This document shows positions 4,963 through 13,722 of a DNA stretch of 34,802 nt, piece after piece. Made by a program: the position numbers and the translations under genes. The DNA comes from Candidatus Altiarchaeales archaeon IMC4. GTDB taxonomy: Archaea; Altiarchaeota; Altiarchaeia; IMC4. The notes under the pieces are model-generated. The model was not told the origin of the DNA, searched no databases, and worked only from the letters and a program-made list of their open reading frames with translations. Where the stretch lies: contig MCBF01000001.1 in the NCBI GenBank assembly GCA_001742785.1, positions 147,335 to 182,136 of the forward strand. The letters are read 5' to 3'. Each line of letters begins with the position of its first letter. Within the stretch, counting starts at the first letter, position 1.

Positions 4963-5202
4963 TTGGAGGCCAAATTGTTAGACAACATACTTATCCCCAA
5001 GCACGAAAAGTTGAGCGCCAAGGAAACGGAGGCAGTGTTAAAAAAGTATAAGATAACGACTGTAGAACTGCCGAAGATACTGAAAACCGACCCGGCTCTC
5101 TCTGAGATGAAGGTGAATGCAGGGGATGTCATAAAGATAACCCGCAAAAGCCAGACCGCCGGAGAATCTTTCTATTTTAGGGTTGTGATAGAGGGCAAAT
5201 AA
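4963..5202 (+). CDS. rpoH: DNA-directed RNA polymerase subunit H (Rpo5)
   Basis: LIPKHEKLSAKE...ITRKSQTAGESFYFRVV is typical RpoH. There is no ATG. The start is TTG at 4963 or, more likely, TTG at 4975, which is preceded by GGAGG (4965-4969). The stop overlaps the rpoB'' ATG (TAATG). Confidence 0.85.
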   Translation: MEAKLLDNILIPKHEKLSAKETEAVLKKYKITTVELPKILKTDPALSEMKVNAGDVIKITRKSQTAGESFYFRVVIEGK

Positions 5203-6653
5203 TGGTAAAAGTAAACGAATTCATGACGGGGGAGGATTTAATAAAATTCCAGATCGACTCTTTCAACTGGCTCATAGAGAAGGGCCTGCAGGAAGTGATA
5301 GACGAGCGCGGCCCGATGGAAATAGAGATCGAGGGCTATTCGATTGGGCTCGGGAAGATAACTGTGGGAACCCCCCAGGTCATCGAATCCGGGCAGTCGC
5401 CTGAAAGCAGGCTTCCTTTTGAGTGCCGGCTGAGGAACCTAACGTACTCAGCCCCTTTGGTTCTTGAGTTCATAGAGGAAAGCGGTGGCAAGAAGGAGGT
5501 CGTCCCGGTAGAAATAGGGCATATGCCGGTAATGCTCAGGTCAAAAGGATGCCTTCTCCATGGTTTAAGCGACAGCGAACTGATAGGGGCCAATGAAGAC
5601 CCCATGGACCTGGGAGGGTATTTCATAATAAACGGTGCCGAGAGGATACTCATACTCGTCGAGGACCTGGCGCCGAACCGTATCGTAACGACAAGCGAGG
5701 TCGTAACCGATAAGCAGGTAACGACCGCGAAGGTCTTCTCGATAAGACAGGGCTTCCGCTCAAGAGTCACCGTCGAAAAACGCGAGGGTGCAAGTGGAGA
5801 AACCCTGTTCGTTACGTTCCCCGGGATACCCGTGCGGATGCCCATCGTAGTCCTGATGAAGGCGCTTGGCCTTCAAAACGATGAGATAATCGGCTTGTTT
5901 GACGACAAAACGAAACTGGAGCTATACCTCAACATGGAGCCCGTTCAGGACATGACCTGCGAGGAGGCCTTTGAGTACCTTGGCCGCCGGGCGGGGGTGG
6001 GGCACGCGAAACAGTACCAGGCAACCCGTGCGAACCAGGTCGTGAACAACTTCCTTTTGCCGCATATCGGAAACAACGAAGAGTCAAGAAGGGCAAAGGC
6101 AGTATATCTCGGGATAATGGCAAAAAAGGCGATAGAGCTTGACAGCAAGACGAGGCAGCCGGACGACAAGGACCACTATTCGAACAAAAGGCTTCGCCTT
6201 GCCGGCGACCTTATGCAGGAGCTGTTCCGTGTCAGTTTCAACAAGATAACAAGGGACATAAAATACCAGCTTGAAAAGCAGCACGCAAGGCACAGGACCG
6301 TAAACATAAGAACCGCCGTGCGAAGCAACAATCTAAGCGAAAGCATTGATTATGCGCTTGCCACGGGCAACTGGACCGGCGGCAGAAGCGGGGTAAGTCA
6401 GGTGCTTGACCGCATGAATTACTTATCTTCGATTGCGCACAAGAGAAGGGTCTCGTCGCTTTTGAGCAGGAGCCACCCGCACTTCGAGGCGCGTGATTTG
6501 CATTCAACACAATGGGGTAGGTTGTGCCCGAACGAAACCCCTGAGGGGCAAAACTGCGGGCTTGTGAAAAATCTGGCGATTGGTGCGGTAATATCCCCCG
6601 GCGAAACGGAGGATGCAGTTGAAAAACAGCTCACGGCTCTGGGGGTAAAATAA
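5202..6653 (+). CDS. rpoB2: DNA-directed RNA polymerase subunit B'' (N-terminal part of split Rpo2)
   Basis: 483 aa with an N-terminal [16 protein letters not shown] motif. Ends with ...[18 protein letters not shown], as expected for the B''/B' split point. Confidence 0.93.
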
Positions 6654-6654
6654 A

Positions 6655-8460
6655 ATGGCAGGCGTATATCTTAACGGAAGGTTCATGGGGCGGCACGAAA
6701 AACCGGATGCTTTAGTGGAGGCGCTGAGGGAGTCCAGAAGAAAAGGGGCTATGCCCAGGAACACATCGATAAGCTACAGGGAGGAAAACAACGAGGTCCA
6801 GATATACACCGACCGCGGCAGGGTTTTGAGGCCCCTTATCATAGTCAAAAACGGGAAGCCCCTTCTCACAAAGGAGCATAAGGAACTCATCAAAAACGAG
6901 AAGATGTCATGGAACGATGCCGTTGGGAAGGGCCTTGTCGAGTATATAGACGCGGAGGAGGAGGAGAACGCCTATGTCGCAATATACGAGGGCGACCTCA
7001 CCAAGGAGCACACCCACCTCGAGGTTCATCCTGCGCTGATACTCAGCATAGCAAGCGGTTTCGCGCCGTACCCGGAACACAACTCGTCCCCGAGGATTAC
7101 GATGGCTGCCGCAATGGCAAAACAAAGCATCGGCCTTTATGCGTCAAACCACTATTCAAGATTCGATTCGCGTTCCGACATCCTGATTTACCCGCAGAGC
7201 CCGCTTGTGAGGACCGACATAACCGAATGCATAGATTACAACAGAAGGCCAGCGGGGCAGAACTTCGTAGTCTCCATCATGTCTTTTGAGGGCTACAACA
7301 TGGAGGATGCCGTTATCCTGAACAAGAGTTCCGTTGAGCGCGGGCTTGGGCGTTCGATGTTCTACCGGACATATACGACGGAAGAGCGCGGCTATCCGAG
7401 CGGACAGTACGACAAATTCGAGATACCCAAAGAGGGTGTCGAGGGCACCCAACCCGAGGAAACATATTCAAAGCTCGACGAGGACGGGTTTATATTACCC
7501 GAGACCGACGTAAGTTCGGGGGATGTCCTTGTGGGGAAAACATCCCCCCCGAGATTCCTCGAGGAGATAGGACCTTACGGCATAGTAGAGGAGCAAAGGA
7601 GGGAAACCTCGACTACGATGAGGCACATGGAACACGGGGTAGTTGACCGCGTCGTCCTCACGGAAACCCTTGAGAAGAATAAGCTCGCAAAAATAAGGGT
7701 GCGAACCCATAGGATTCCGGAACCCGGTGACAAGTTCGCATCAAGGCACGGGCAGAAGGGTGTCGTCGGCATGCTCGTCCCCCATGAGGACATGCCGTTC
7801 ACAAAGGAAGGCATAGTCCCCGACCTGATAATAAACCCGCACGCGATCCCGTCAAGAATGACCATAGGGCACCTCCTTGAGATGGTCGGCGGGAAGGTGG
7901 CTTCCCTTGAGATAGGCAAGGTAAATTCGACCGCATTCGTAAATGACCACGAGGACTACCTCAGGCCGCTTTTGGAAAAGAACGGGTTCAAGAGCACCGG
8001 CAAAGAGGTCATGTACAACGGTGCCACCGGCGGGAAGTTCGAGGCCGAGATTTTCATAGGGGTAATCTACTACCAGAGGCTGCACCACATGGTGGCAAAC
8101 AAACTGCATGCCCGCGCAAGAGGACCGGTACAGATGCTGACAAGACAGCCTACTGAAGGGCGCGCAAGGGAGGGAGGGCTTCGTTTCGGTGAGATGGAGC
8201 GCGACTGCCTGATTGCGCACGGGGCTTCCATGATGCTGAAGGACCGCATGCTTGACGAATCGGATAGGGTTGTTGTCCCGGTTTGTGAAAAGTGCGGCCT
8301 GATAGGTGTGAGGGACTTCGAAAGGAGGTCTGTGCGCTGCCCGCTGTGCGGGGATTCGAACATAGAATACGTAGAGATAGCGTATGCATTCAAATTATTG
8401 CTGGATGAATTAAAGGGGATGTGCATACACCCGAAGCTGAGGCTGGGGGAGAGGGCTTAA
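6655..8460 (+). CDS. rpoB1: DNA-directed RNA polymerase subunit B' (C-terminal part of split Rpo2)
   Basis: 601 aa. Motifs: [32 protein letters not shown], and a C-terminal Zn ribbon (CEKCG...CPLCG). The ATG is 1 nt after the rpoB'' stop. Confidence 0.95.
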
Positions 8461-8466
8461 GAATAG

Positions 8467-8589
8467 CCCTTTCTTTTTAAGAAAAAGAGAGGGTTATACT
8501 CGAAATTGCTGTGCAATTTCGGTACACCAAAACACTTTGTGTTTTGCGTGTCATCCCAAAGAAAAACAGGGCGGGTTGCGAAGCAACCC
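8467..8589 (+). repeat. Hairpin-rich palindromic element, copy B
   Basis: CCCTTTCTTTTT-aag-AAAAAGAGAGGG (8467-8493). HP1 GAAATTGC-tgt-GCAATTTC (8502-8520). GGTACACC. HP2 AAAACAC-ttt-GTGTTTT (8529-8545). GCGTGTCA TCCC AAAGAAAAA. HP3 GGGTTGC-gaa-GCAACCC (8573-8589). Confidence 0.8.
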
Positions 8590-8628
8590 ACCCGAATAAT
8601 ACGACAAACAAAATTCAAATACAAAAAG

Positions 8629-11600
8629 ATGGCGATAGTAAGGAAAAAGGTCAGGGAGATTGAATTTGCTCTGTTTTCACCAAAGCAGATAAGGGCATTG
8701 TCTGCGGGAAAAATATTCACGCCGGACACTTATGACGATGACGGCTACCCGATAGAGGGCGGCCTTATGGACCCGCATCTCGGGGTAATCGACCCGGGGA
8801 TAAGGTGCCGCACCTGCGGGGGGAGGCTCGGGGAATGCATGGGGCACTTCGGCCACATCGAGCTTACGCGGCCGGTTGTGCACGTCGGCTACGCAAAGGA
8901 GATATACAGCCTCCTGCGTGCAACCTGCAAGGGCTGCGGAAGGCTTCTTGTAACGGAAGATACGCTGCAGGGCTATGACGCGGCGAACCTGAACTCCGAA
9001 AAGTTTAACGAAATACTGGAGAAGGCCGAGAAGGTTTCGGATTCTTCGGGCAGGTGCCCTCACTGCGGGCAGCAGCAGCAGAAAATAAAGTTCGTCAGGC
9101 CGTATTCTTATCACGAGGGGGACGACACGCTTCTTGTGACCGACATACTGGAGCGCTTTGAAAAGATAAGCGAAGAAGACCTGATGTACGTCGGTTTCAA
9201 CACGAGGCCAGAGTGGATGATCATGAGCGCGATACCGGTCCTTCCGATAGTTACAAGGCCGTCGATAACCCTTGAGTCAAGCGACAGGAGCGAGGACGAC
9301 CTCACTCACAAACTCGTCGATATACTCAGGATAAACCAGCGCCTTGAGGAGAACATAAACTCCGGCGCGCCGCAGTTGATAATAGAGGACCTTTGGGACC
9401 TCCTTCAGTATCACGTTGCCACCTACTTTGACAACGGCATAACCGGCATCCCACCCGCAAGGCACCGCTCGGGCAGGCCGCTTAAGACCATAGCGCAAAG
9501 GCTTAAAGGCAAAGAGGGCAGGTTCAGGAACAACCTTTCAGGAAAGCGTGTTAACTTCTCGGCAAGAACTGTCATAAGCCCGGACCCGAACATAAGCATA
9601 AACGAGGTCGGGGTCCCGGAGGTCATAGCCGTCGAGCTCACCGTCCCGGAAGAGGCAAACAAGGATAACATAGATTCCCTGAAAGGGATGGTAAAAAACG
9701 GGCCCGGTAAGTTCCCGGGCGCACACAGCGTCATAAAAGAGGGCAAGCGGCGCAGGATCCTGGAGGAAACGAAGGACGAGGTCGCAGAAACCCTTGCAGT
9801 AGGGGACGTCGTCGAGCGCCACCTTTGCGACGGCGACATTGTCATATTCAACAGGCAGCCATCCTTGCACAGGATGTCGATGATGTGCCACACCGTAAGG
9901 GTTCTGCCGTATTCCACATTCAGGTTGAACACCGCAGTCTGCGCCCCGTATAACGCGGACTTCGACGGCGATGAGATGAACCTGCACGTCCCGCAGTCCG
10001 AGGAAGCCAAGGCCGAGGCGGAAATACTGATGAAGGTGCAGGAGAACATAATCTCCCCGCGGTTCGGTGAGCCCGTGATGGGCGGCCGCCACGACCACGT
10101 AACAGGGATGTACCTTCTTACCAAAGACGGCAGGATTTTAAGCCGCAGGGAAGCGCTCCAGCTGACCAGGAACATCGTGAACCTGCCGAAAAAGGACACG
10201 TACACCGGGAGGGATATATTTAGTGCGCTTCTGCCGAATGACCTGACTATGTCCTTTGAAGGAAAGATGGGCCCGGTGGTTATAGAAAAAGGGCAGGTCA
10301 AGTCCGGCGTTATAGCTGCAAAGGGCATGGCAGGAGAACTACTGAACGAGATATTCCTCAAGTACGGCTCGGACGCGGCAAGGCAGTACATCGACAAATC
10401 CACACGTCTTGCGATAAACTCATTCATGAAGTACGGTTTCTCAACCGGAATAGACGAAAACGACCTGAAAAAAGACGGAATAAAGGAGATCACGGATGTC
10501 CTTGATGCCGCGGAGAAGGAGGTCGACAAGCTGGTCGAACAGCACCACAAGAAAACCATGAAGGTCGTCCCCGGGAAAACATTGGACGAAAGCCTTGAGG
10601 ATTACGCCCTTATGACGCTTGGAAAAGCGAGAATGGACTCCGGAAAGATAGCCGCACGGCGCATCGGCGAGAACAGCGCGGTGATAATGGCAAAAGCGGG
10701 GGCCCGCGGAAGCCTTCTGAACCTTACCCAAATGGTCGGGTCGATCGGGCAGCAGGCGGTCAGGGGCAAGCGTATAAAGCGCGGCTACCACAACAGGACG
10801 CTGTCAAGTTTCAAGAAACACGATGTGAGCGCAAGGGCAAACGGTTTCGTCAGGTCAAGTTTCAAGAAGGGGCAGACCCCGCAGGAATACTTCTTCCACG
10901 CGATGGGCGGGAGGGAAAGCCTTGTGGATACTGCGATAAGGACGGGGCGCAGCGGTTATATGCAAAGGAGGCTCATAAACGCACTTCAGGACCTTAAGGT
11001 ATACCCCGACGAAACGGTTCGCGGGGACGGGAAGATATTGGTGCAATTCAGGTACGGGGAGGACGGAATAGACCCTGCGAAGACCGGATATATCAAAGGC
11101 GGCAGGAAGGATTACGAGAAGGCTAGGGTTGTCCCCGGAGAGGCCGTCGGAACCGTTGCTGCGCAGTCAATAGGTGAACCCGGGACACAGATGACCTTGA
11201 GGACGTTCCACTACGCGGGTGTCGTCGAGTTGAGCGTTCCGCTGGGTCTGCCGCGGCTTATAGAGATAATAGATGCCAAGCGCTCGCCGAGCAACCCGAT
11301 GATGACCATATACCTCGACAAGGAGCACATGCACGATGAAAAGAAGGCTTCCGAGCTTGCAGAAAAACTCGATGAGAAGTTCATGGAGGATGTCTGCGAA
11401 AGCACCGTCGACGCGAACAAAAAAGAGATCATAATAAAAACAAAGGACAAGGCGGCGCAGGAGGCCCTGAAGGAAATCTCCGAGGCAAGGGCGGCCAACA
11501 CGTTCGTCGTATCGGGGGAGTCGCTTCCTGAAATCAAAAGGACGCTTGGAAAGCTTATGAAGAAGAAGGTGTCCGGCGTAAAGGACATAAAAAGGACGTT

Positions 11601-12078
11601 CGTAAGGGAGCTTAACGGGGAGACCGTAATCTACACTGAGGGCTCAAACCTGAAGGCAGTATTAAAGATTAAGGGCGTTGATACCGTGCGGACGACGACA
11701 AATGACCTCTACCAGATATATGAAACGCTCGGCATAGAGGCGGTAAGAAGCGCCGTCATAAACGAGGCATCGAAGGTCCTCAAGGAAGAAAGGCTGGATG
11801 TTGACATAAGGCACATGATGCTTGTCGCAGACCAAATGACGGTTACCGGGGAGCTTCAGGCGGTCGGAAGGCACGGAATAAGCGGCTCGAAGGAGTCGAT
11901 GCTTGCAAGGGCCGCTTTCGAGGAAACCGAAAAGCACATACTCAATGCCGCTGTTACCGGAGAGGTGGACATGCTCGACGGCGTTGCAGAGAACATAATC
12001 ATAGGGCAGTCTGTCCCCGTAGGGACGGGCACCATTGACCTAGGGGTAAAACCCGGCATTATCGGCAAGGGAAAGTAA
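8629..12078 (+). CDS. rpoA: DNA-directed RNA polymerase largest subunit, with A' and A'' (Rpo1N plus Rpo1C) fused in one ORF
   Basis: Start chosen at MAIVRKKVREIEF, because the longer 8506 ORF begins inside a repeat element. The A' part has CRTCGGRLGECMGHFGH and YNADFDGDEMNLH. The A'' part (VVPGEAVGTVAAQSIGEPGTQMTLRTFHYAG...LGLPRLIEIIDAKR) follows in the same frame with no stop. Confidence 0.9.
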   Translation: MAIVRKKVREIEFALFSPKQIRALSAGKIFTPDTYDDDGYPIEGGLMDPHLGVIDPGIRCRTCGGRLGECMGHFGHIELTRPVVHVGYAKEIYSLLRATCKGCGRLLVTEDTLQGYDAANLNSEKFNEILEKAEKVSDSSGRCPHCGQQQQKIKFVRPYSYHEGDDTLLVTDILERFEKISEEDLMYVGFNTRPEWMIMSAIPVLPIVTRPSITLESSDRSEDDLTHKLVDILRINQRLEENINSGAPQLIIEDLWDLLQYHVATYFDNGITGIPPARHRSGRPLKTIAQRLKGKEGRFRNNLSGKRVNFSARTVISPDPNISINEVGVPEVIAVELTVPEEANKDNIDSLKGMVKNGPGKFPGAHSVIKEGKRRRILEETKDEVAETLAVGDVVERHLCDGDIVIFNRQPSLHRMSMMCHTVRVLPYSTFRLNTAVCAPYNADFDGDEMNLHVPQSEEAKAEAEILMKVQENIISPRFGEPVMGGRHDHVTGMYLLTKDGRILSRREALQLTRNIVNLPKKDTYTGRDIFSALLPNDLTMSFEGKMGPVVIEKGQVKSGVIAAKGMAGELLNEIFLKYGSDAARQYIDKSTRLAINSFMKYGFSTGIDENDLKKDGIKEITDVLDAAEKEVDKLVEQHHKKTMKVVPGKTLDESLEDYALMTLGKARMDSGKIAARRIGENSAVIMAKAGARGSLLNLTQMVGSIGQQAVRGKRIKRGYHNRTLSSFKKHDVSARANGFVRSSFKKGQTPQEYFFHAMGGRESLVDTAIRTGRSGYMQRRLINALQDLKVYPDETVRGDGKILVQFRYGEDGIDPAKTGYIKGGRKDYEKARVVPGEAVGTVAAQSIGEPGTQMTLRTFHYAGVVELSVPLGLPRLIEIIDAKRSPSNPMMTIYLDKEHMHDEKKASELAEKLDEKFMEDVCESTVDANKKEIIIKTKDKAAQEALKEISEARAANTFVVSGESLPEIKRTLGKLMKKKVSGVKDIKRTFVRELNGETVIYTEGSNLKAVLKIKGVDTVRTTTNDLYQIYETLGIEAVRSAVINEASKVLKEERLDVDIRHMMLVADQMTVTGELQAVGRHGISGSKESMLARAAFEETEKHILNAAVTGEVDMLDGVAENIIIGQSVPVGTGTIDLGVKPGIIGKGK

Positions 12079-12090
12079 CCGACTTAAAAA

Positions 12091-12393
12091 ATGAAAACAC
12101 TCAAAAGGGAATTAGCGAACGCACAGAAGAGCGGAAACGTGGTAACCGGTTCGAAAAATACGATATTATCTTTATTAACGGGAAATCCCAAGTTGATAAT
12201 ATTGAGTAACAATTGCAAGGTTGTTATAAAAGAAACAATCACCTATTACTCGAGGTTATCTGGCACTCATTGCCACGTGATTGAAGGCGACAGCATAGAA
12301 CTTGGTTCTGCTTGCGGCAAACCGTTTCCGGTGTCTGCCATTGCAGTCATGGACGAGGGCGAGTCAAATATCCTTGACTTTGCCAAAGGGTGA
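12091..12393 (+). CDS. rpl30e: 50S ribosomal protein L30e
   Basis: 100 aa (...GSKNTILSLLTGNPKLIILSNNC...IELGSACGKPFPVSAIAV). It sits in the canonical position between rpoA and nusA. Confidence 0.9.
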   Translation: MKTLKRELANAQKSGNVVTGSKNTILSLLTGNPKLIILSNNCKVVIKETITYYSRLSGTHCHVIEGDSIELGSACGKPFPVSAIAVMDEGESNILDFAKG

Positions 12394-12905: not shown

Positions 12906-13334
12906 ATGGCAAGGGGAGAATTTTCGGGCAAAAAGCTTGAGGACCACCGGCATCAGGCAAGGTGGAAGAAAAGCGACTACTGCAGGAGGGTGCTTGGGCT
13001 GAAGCAAAAGCACGACCCGTTAGAGGGGGCTCCGCAGGCAAGGGCCATTGTGCTTGAGAAGGTCGGCATAGAGGCGAAGCAGCCGAATTCCGCGATAAGA
13101 AAGTGCGTAAAGGTTCAGCTCATGAAGAACGGCAGGCAGGCGACCGCTTTCTGTCCGGGCAATCACGCAATCACTTTCATAGAGGAGCACGACGAGGTAG
13201 TTATAGAGGGCATCGGCGGCCGAAAGGGGCGGTCGATGGGGGACCTTTCTGGCATAAGATACAAAGTAATAATGGTAAATGGCATCTCGCTGAACGAACT
13301 GTGGCACGGACGGAAGGAGAGGGCACAGAGATAA
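12906..13334 (+). CDS. rps12: 30S ribosomal protein S12 (uS12)
   Basis: 142 aa with [28 protein letters not shown]. Confidence 0.95.
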
Positions 13335-13335
13335 A

Positions 13336-13722
13336 ATGACTGACATAATAAACGACACGATTGTGAACCTGAAAAACCATGAGCGCAAGGGGAAATCGCA
13401 GTGCACGATTAAGCCGGTTTCCAAGCTGCTGATTGAGGTTTTAGGGGTATTCCAAAAAGAGGGCTACATCGGCCAGTTTGAGGTGTCTGAGGACAAAACC
13501 GGAGGCAGCGTGCGTGTTAATCTTGTAAAGAGGATAAACGAGTGCGGCATCATCAAGCCGCGCTACTCTGTAAGCCACACTGAATTCGACACCTTGGAGA
13601 AGAGATTCCTGCCGGCGAAGGATTTCGGGACGATCGTTGTAACGACGCCCAAAGGGGTTATGAGCCACAAGGACGCAAAAAAGAAGAACCTCGGCGGCAA
13701 GTTAATAGCATACGTTTACTGA
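13336..13722 (+). CDS. rps8: 30S ribosomal protein S8 (uS8)
   Basis: 128 aa with a C-terminal ...KKKNLGGKLIAYVY. The ATG is 1 nt after the S12 stop. Confidence 0.92.
   Translation: MTDIINDTIVNLKNHERKGKSQCTIKPVSKLLIEVLGVFQKEGYIGQFEVSEDKTGGSVRVNLVKRINECGIIKPRYSVSHTEFDTLEKRFLPAKDFGTIVVTTPKGVMSHKDAKKKNLGGKLIAYVY

Follow-up and report, generated by a model that had tools for sequence, protein, structure and literature searches.

The window analyzed here is a stretch of 34,802 nucleotides from Candidatus Altiarchaeales archaeon IMC4, an organism of the subsurface whose genome we label G000 and which belongs to family f1; all gene coordinates are those of the whole window. We focused on rpoA, the gene for the largest RNA polymerase (RNAP) subunit, which lies at 8629..12078 on the forward (+) strand and encodes Rpo1 as a single open reading frame (ORF) of 1149 amino acids. 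The stop-to-stop frame runs from 8506 to 12078 with zero internal stops and zero frameshifts. Its first start codon, the TTG at 8506, was rejected in favor of the ATG at 8629 because the homologs line up with the ATG form from its residue 3 onward and the public gene call, too, has 1149 amino acids. Pfam Rpb1 domains 1 to 5 (PF04997, PF00623, PF04983, PF05000, and PF04998) follow one another in the protein, all far over the cutoff, and the models of both A' and A'' match. Profile matches were counted in the 1190-residue frame, from which 41 is subtracted to give the numbering of the 1149-residue protein. The NCBIfam A' model PRK08566 (profile positions 4-863 of 883) matched frame residues 44-861, so that it ends at residue 820 of the protein, and the A'' model TIGR02389 (positions 32-365 of 367) matched frame residues 866-1180, starting at residue 825. 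Four residues lie between the two matches. A search of the genome, a 1.39-Mb single contig that is ~90% complete, found this one rpoA locus and no other piece of rpoA. An earlier note on this DNA had claimed that A' and A'' form one continuous ORF of this length, and the uninterrupted frame and the two profile matches bear that out.

The residues quoted in that note for the junction are found at 11041-11160, where ...VQFRYGEDGIDPAKTGYIKGGRKDYEKA is contiguous with RVVPGEAVGTVAAQSIGEPGTQ.... In our junction alignments, the seam AKTGYIKGGRKDYEKARVV comprises residues 817-835 (11077..11133, +) between the anchors P816 and P836, and the peptide that crosses it reads ...DPAKTGYIKGGRKDYEKARVVPGE.... 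These 19 residues occupy the place of the A' tail, of the stop and start codons, and of the N-terminal helix of A''. The catalytic NADFDGD loop is found in the translation at residues 442-448 (9952..9972, +), and N442-D448 does not vary across 68 aligned fused RpoA sequences. The bridge helix region AMGGRESLVDTAIRTGRSGYMQRRLINAL (residues 758-786; 10900..10986, +) aligns with residues 814-876 of yeast Rpb1 and residues 818-883 of Thermococcus kodakarensis Rpo1N. The N-terminal block of the trigger loop, AAQSIGEPGTQMTLRTFHYAG (residues 844-864; 11158..11220, +), is usually located near the start of A'' and aligns with yeast Rpb1 from residue 1054 and with T. kodakarensis Rpo1C from residue 51. 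No catalytic, bridge-helix, or trigger-loop motif of the fused gene is disrupted.

Canonical split Rpo1N/Rpo1C pairs (T. kodakarensis, 4QIW/6KF3; Pyrococcus furiosus, 8CRO; Saccharolobus, 2WAQ/2PMZ) share the domains, catalytic loop, bridge helix, trigger loop, and operon context of the window gene, and the flanks of the seam align with them at E values of 1e-25 to 1e-36. However, the split subunits are encoded by two genes, parted behind the bridge helix and bearing the A' tail and the A'' head, while the window has one gene without either. The earlier note had suggested that both segments are missing, and they are. Compared to the profiles, ~20 residues of the A' tail and ~31 of the A'' head are absent. 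Compared to T. kodakarensis, Rpo1N residues 884-906 and Rpo1C residues 1-50 (23 and 50 residues) have no counterpart and 6 unaligned residues stand in their place. Compared to split Altiarchaeota, ~25 to 40 residues have been replaced by the 19-residue seam. Eukaryotic Rpb1 is likewise a single chain, in which the trigger-loop block aligns over residues 1054-1132 and the bridge-helix block over the span given above for yeast. Rpb1 differs in having a C-terminal domain, which the window protein lacks, and in having residues 877-1053, which we take to be the foot in the nomenclature of Cramer 2001 and which correspond to ~12 residues here.

Upstream, rpoB is split. The gene rpoB'' (Rpo2N, 483 amino acids; 5202..6653, +) carries Pfam Rpb2 domains 1 to 3 and matches PRK09606 with 609.9 bits over profile positions 8-489 of 496. 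The gene rpoB' (Rpo2C, 601 amino acids; 6655..8460, +) carries Rpb2 domains 4 to 7 and matches TIGR03670 with 964.9 bits over positions 1-598 of 599. It begins one base past the rpoB'' stop. With adjacent genes whose ends fit the B'' and B' models, this is a euryarchaeota-type B''/B' pair, as the earlier note had read it.

Published tables list RpoA as unsplit only in Thaumarchaeota, Korarchaeota, and Aigarchaeota (Caldiarchaeum), always together with unsplit RpoB, and as split in Crenarchaeota and Euryarchaeota (Nunoura 2011, PMC3082918). The statement of the earlier note that unsplit versions occur mainly in Thaumarchaeota-like lineages agrees with these tables, but the window gene is not Thaumarchaeota-like, as its nearest relatives are split Altiarchaeota genes and its seam is 19 residues long. 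The unsplit A-type RpoA of Thaumarchaeota, Aigarchaeota, Korarchaeota, and Bathyarchaeia is also a single ORF. In contrast to the window gene, it is ~1270 to 1285 amino acids long, its seam in Bathyarchaeia measures 82 to 85 amino acids, and it is paired with unsplit rpoB. It is also only ~50% identical to the window protein, which nests among split Altiarchaeota genes. The sequence comparison thus indicates that the window rpoA is not a TACK-type unsplit gene and shares no common descent with those genes as an unsplit form.

In Da Cunha et al. 2017 (PMC5484517), Pacearchaeota is the sole addition to the unsplit groups, given there as a secondary (derived) fusion, and the A versus A'A'' state is used in an argument for the root of Archaea. 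We searched the 160-residue seam region against 1.84 billion representative proteins (50% representatives). Clusters that matched this query in one continuous stretch were taken as short seam, and only a few could be named; two of them are PIN77526.1, labeled Candidatus Woesearchaeota, and RLG14493.1, labeled Candidatus Nanohaloarchaeota. These genes, like the Pacearchaeota fusion, are also fused with a very short seam. However, they belong to a different phylum from the window, and we presume an independent origin. Unlike these, the Altiarchaeota fusion is polymorphic within one order, with an intermediate and with genomes separated from fusion by a single in-frame stop (see below). Among the papers that we searched, none mentions a fused rpoA in Altiarchaeota. 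Bird et al. 2016 reported other split genes in Altiarchaeales (pheT and Dph2), and RNAP is not among them. Secondary fusion of rpoA by deletion is therefore a known kind of event, and the present lineage has not been described for it.

We surveyed 61 species representatives of the phylum, 49 in the order of the window and 12 in two sister-order families (f8 and f9). Within the order, rpoA was fused in 13 genomes, split or stopping after A' in 35, and without a match in 1. In the sister-order families, it was split in 12 of 12. The fused genomes are G000 (f1), G002 and G007 (f3), G003 (f4), G013 (f7), and, in f5, G010, G016, G032, G004, G008, G036, G040, and G038. The closest named homologs of the window rpoA come from metagenome-assembled genomes (MAGs) labeled Candidatus Altiarchaeota or Altiarchaeales, several of them identical to genes of the relatives in our trees. 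The gene rpoB was unsplit in f5, f8, and f9 and split in G000, f3, f4, and most of f7, with a break of the form ...FGVK*/M..VYLNGR in all of these split genes (loci L013-L071). Where both states could be read, rpoA was fused and rpoB split in four genomes (G000, G002, G003, and G013), rpoA fused and rpoB unsplit in 6, rpoA split and rpoB unsplit in 11, and both split in 10. All four combinations are thus present in the surveyed Altiarchaeota. The earlier note had called a fused A with a split B unusual and had named its being common in this clade as a refutation. Measured against the published tables, the combination is indeed unusual, but in this order it occurs in four separate lineages.

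Some side observations were made on these genes. In G006 and G009, rpoB is unsplit again, with the new linkers EIRFGRESKDAATG and DAGGTG, and their sisters are split. P0019 (1679 amino acids) is a fused Altiarchaeota-type rpoA with the intein domains PF14528 and PF14890, and an N-terminal rpoA piece in a 1079-residue open frame (G007:C37) may hold the same intein insert. G036:C13 carries a second rpoA, 51 to 53% identical and with in-frame stops, and the genome has a normal fused gene as well; this second copy may be a pseudogene or come from a contaminating contig. The A' gene at L048 (G026) is broken, with a change of frame, between query residues 702 and 752; an insert, a frameshift, or an error in assembly may be the cause.

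To compare seams, we used the anchors ...YGEDGIDP on the A' side and PGEAVG... on the A'' side. Each fused lineage has its own seam, differing in length and in sequence: next to the one in the window, we read MKKEYLKEGDYEKAKIV in genus g15, MKKGYYEEAATKENFERAKVV in g5, SKKGYLKYKEENYIKKALVV in G010, MKKNYQTTDEEGALVD in G003, MKKGYEDPKKSAVV in G002, and MRKEFLKVKGAKQKATVD in G013. Measured from anchor to anchor, the fused genes of Altiarchaeota have 14 to 23 amino acids, the G038 type has 42, and the unsplit Bathyarchaeia type has 82 to 85 (53 sequences). The split forms of f5, f6, and f7 have a homologous A'' head, M..ELPxxIxxRLxxLxxKEKxxFLxxYxKAxVxPGEAVG. Among the sister-order heads, we recognized by eye only a looser LPPxLxDxL motif in f9, and the f8 head is of low complexity and unlike that of f5 to f7. 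Since a gene that split again could not recreate this head, we infer that the split state is ancestral and the fused state derived.

One sister pair shows how a fusion can come about. Split G022 and fused G038 are separated by a branch length of 0.027. Between them lies one 20-nucleotide deletion, which removed the last three A' codons and TAATAATGA (with the stops TAA TAA TGA) and brought the A'' ATG into frame. G038 retains the entire A'' head, including the old start methionine, and is a fusion caught early. In the split relatives, the distance from the A' stop to the A'' start ranges from -46 to +52 nucleotides and is mostly -4 to +8. In G018 (L027), G052 (L071), and G041 (L053), A' and A'' share the same frame with 1 to 8 codons between them, including a single stop, so that these genomes are one point mutation short of fusion. 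We also looked for an inverted repeat in 10950-11250 of the window and found none, which ruled out derivation of the seam from a hairpin-repeat family.

These observations also bear on the opposite polarity, in which a short unsplit gene, resembling bacterial beta', would be primitive for Altiarchaeota or a wider DPANN-like group and the split, with its head and tail modules, would have arisen later and several times. The fused lineages do branch early in their clades, and short-seam fused genes do occur in MAGs labeled Woesearchaeota and Nanohaloarchaeota. However, the sister-order genomes are uniformly split, repeated fission would have needed to recreate the same head segment across families (allowing for the looser motif seen in f9), and the only polarized recent event, that of G022 and G038, runs from split to fused. 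We consider a primitive unsplit gene very improbable. Taken together, the sister orders, the homologous A'' heads, and the trees described below point to a split ancestor, and by these the window rpoA would class as a secondary fusion with a short seam.

We then asked how often fusion has occurred. A maximum-likelihood tree was built from concatenated RpoB'', RpoB', the A' part, and the A'' part, with the seam columns excluded. The window rpoA nested among split Altiarchaeota genes, which is the outcome of the concatenated-subunit placement that the earlier note had proposed as a check. Over the whole tree, there were 7 changes between fused and split states (bootstrap 5-95% range, 6-7), at least 5 of which are forced by strongly supported branches. 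Approximately unbiased (AU) tests on the concatenate rejected a single clade of all short-seam fused rows (difference in log likelihood of 358; p = 1.4e-5), a clade of G000, G010, and the genera g15 and g5 (p = 0.0064), and a clade of G003, G002, and G013 (p = 1.5e-4). With RpoA only, the tree again had 7 changes, and the single clade of all short-seam fused rows was rejected with p = 2e-55; that one fused allele was passed around by gene transfer is therefore excluded. Enlarging the tree with metagenome proteins left this picture unchanged, with 6 or more changes forced, and revealed P0017 as a second, short-seam fusion within the genus-level clade that already contains G038. By these trees, the order has fused rpoA independently at least five times, and the number of independent fusions is probably seven or eight.

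All fused genomes could instead go back to one ancient fusion that was passed on by vertical descent or by gene transfer among Altiarchaeota. For this speak the similar end points of the seams in G000, G010, g15, and g5 (GY[IL]K ... [DN]Y.KA.VV) and the poor resolution at the base of the order. Against it stand the rejection of monophyly in the concatenate, in RpoA alone, and in both subgroups and the split genomes nested among fused ones, whose homologous A'' head could not be regained by splitting again. In addition, G038 is clearly a separate, recent event, and P0017 adds another within the same genus-level clade. We regard one ancient fusion as very unlikely.

From all of this, we believe that the window rpoA is very probably a lineage-specific secondary fusion of adjacent rpoA1 (A', Rpo1N) and rpoA2 (A'', Rpo1C) in an Altiarchaeote. 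In our model, the ancestor of the order would have had two tightly packed rpoA genes that were probably translationally coupled, and a deletion across the A' stop and the A'' start codons would have joined them in frame. In the lineage of the window, the same deletion or later trimming may also have taken the tail at the C terminus of A' and ~30 residues of the N-terminal helix of A'', leaving the seam to connect the modules of the bridge helix and the trigger loop. The predicted product is a single-chain largest subunit that would function in the manner of bacterial beta' or eukaryotic Rpb1, without the small segment that in archaea corresponds to the foot of Rpb1. That head and tail were lost repeatedly and independently, either along with fusion or later, suggests a role for this segment in holding the chains together. 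The lost segment may thus serve mainly to clasp two separate chains and may be dispensable once they are covalently linked.

A continuous ORF could still give two polypeptides, by internal initiation or by proteolysis at the seam, and the enzyme would then stay A' plus A''. The old A'' ATG of G038, still in frame, speaks for this. In the window, however, the seam holds no ATG, GTG, or TTG codon, the first downstream methionine lies within the trigger loop (GTQM), and chains lacking both head and tail would be deprived of their usual contact segment. We regard the production of two chains as very unlikely.

Several points weigh against a repeated fusion into one functional chain. The trees were built from the RNAP subunits themselves rather than from independent markers, the branches of the sister-order outgroup are long, resolution is poor at the base of the order, and the AU groups were defined after inspection of the tree. 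The fused lineages often sit on long, early branches, and their position could partly reflect long-branch attraction toward the outgroup. That the gene is expressed as one chain we infer from its sequence, and that the lost segment acts as a clasp is a conjecture from the pattern of losses. An AlphaFold2 model of the 1149-residue subunit alone, made with a 68-row alignment, reached a mean predicted local distance difference test (pLDDT) score of 60.9 and a predicted template modeling (pTM) score of 0.34, with residues 803-874 below 50 in pLDDT, and was set aside as evidence on the seam for its low confidence.

The continuity of the gene itself was supported by other genomes. An independent public assembly (GCA_017973795.1, contig JAEMOL010000306.1, 27 kb) holds the same fused rpoA, identical in 1146 of 1149 residues; 6 of 3450 nucleotides differ, the seam is identical, and the gene order is the same, as in a very close strain. 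Beyond this strain, a continuous rpoA of 1139 to 1227 amino acids is present in 12 other fused genomes of the order at the species level and in several metagenome clusters, the largest of which has 23 member sequences. The ratio of nonsynonymous to synonymous substitution rates (dN/dS) was 0.04 to 0.09 in three fused pairs and the G022/G038 pair, values that indicate strong purifying selection on the fused genes. A lost base or a collapsed region could in principle have joined two real genes in what is a metagenome-type single contig, but such an artifact is scarcely conceivable when the residues lost relative to split relatives leave the remainder perfectly in frame and conserved, an independent assembly carries an identical seam, the fused gene recurs in other species, and dN/dS is this low. 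By the second assembly, the single locus, the other fused genomes, and dN/dS, the fused rpoA is genuine.

Considered alone, the window gene is moderately surprising, and the interest lies in the surrounding pattern of recurrent fusions, intermediates, convergent loss of the foot remnant, and instability of rpoB. We lean toward a joint reading in which the A'/A'' and B''/B' boundaries of Altiarchaeota, and probably of small-genome archaea in general, are hot spots where fusion recurs, the states are highly homoplastic, and the foot remnant is only a noncovalent clasp. Whether RpoA is split has served as a rare, almost irreversible character that polarizes deep archaeal phylogeny. That one order holds at least five independent fusions, a sister pair caught early, and an equally variable rpoB implies instead a character that is easily changed. 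If the joint reading is true, the splitting of the large RNAP subunits could not be used as a rare genomic change by which to root or group Archaea, as Da Cunha et al. 2017 had argued that it could, and the archaeal foot remnant would be dispensable for transcription once A' and A'' are joined. The fused genes can also be seen as a natural deletion, in which ~25 to 40 residues (compared to split relatives) or ~70 residues (compared to Thermococcus) between the bridge helix and the trigger loop appear to be losable without harm. This hints at the purpose of the segment and at the design of a minimal single-chain archaeal RNAP for biochemistry. Public annotation names the fused genes merely as subunit A', a label that can mislead marker-gene pipelines expecting separate rpoA1 and rpoA2.

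The remaining genes around rpoA follow the order rpoH-rpoB-rpoA-rpl30e-nusA-rps12, which is the canonical archaeal transcription cluster. The operon opens with rpoH (Rpo5, 79 amino acids; 4963..5202, +), taken from the ORF list and assigned to its family by eye from its conserved C-terminal motif; it precedes rpoB, as it does in the canonical cluster. Downstream of rpoA lies the gene for ribosomal protein L30e (12091..12393, +), followed by nusA and rps12. These were likewise taken from the ORF list, with PF01248, KH_2, and Ribosom_S12_S23 matched on the near-identical public contig. The spacer between rpoB' and rpoA (8461-8628) is 168 nucleotides, unusually long for this operon. In the region 12906-13722 of the window (L072 5778-6450), we found rps8 directly after rps12 in place of rps7-fusA-tuf-rps10, and this is not an assembly join, because the independent assembly shows the same order.

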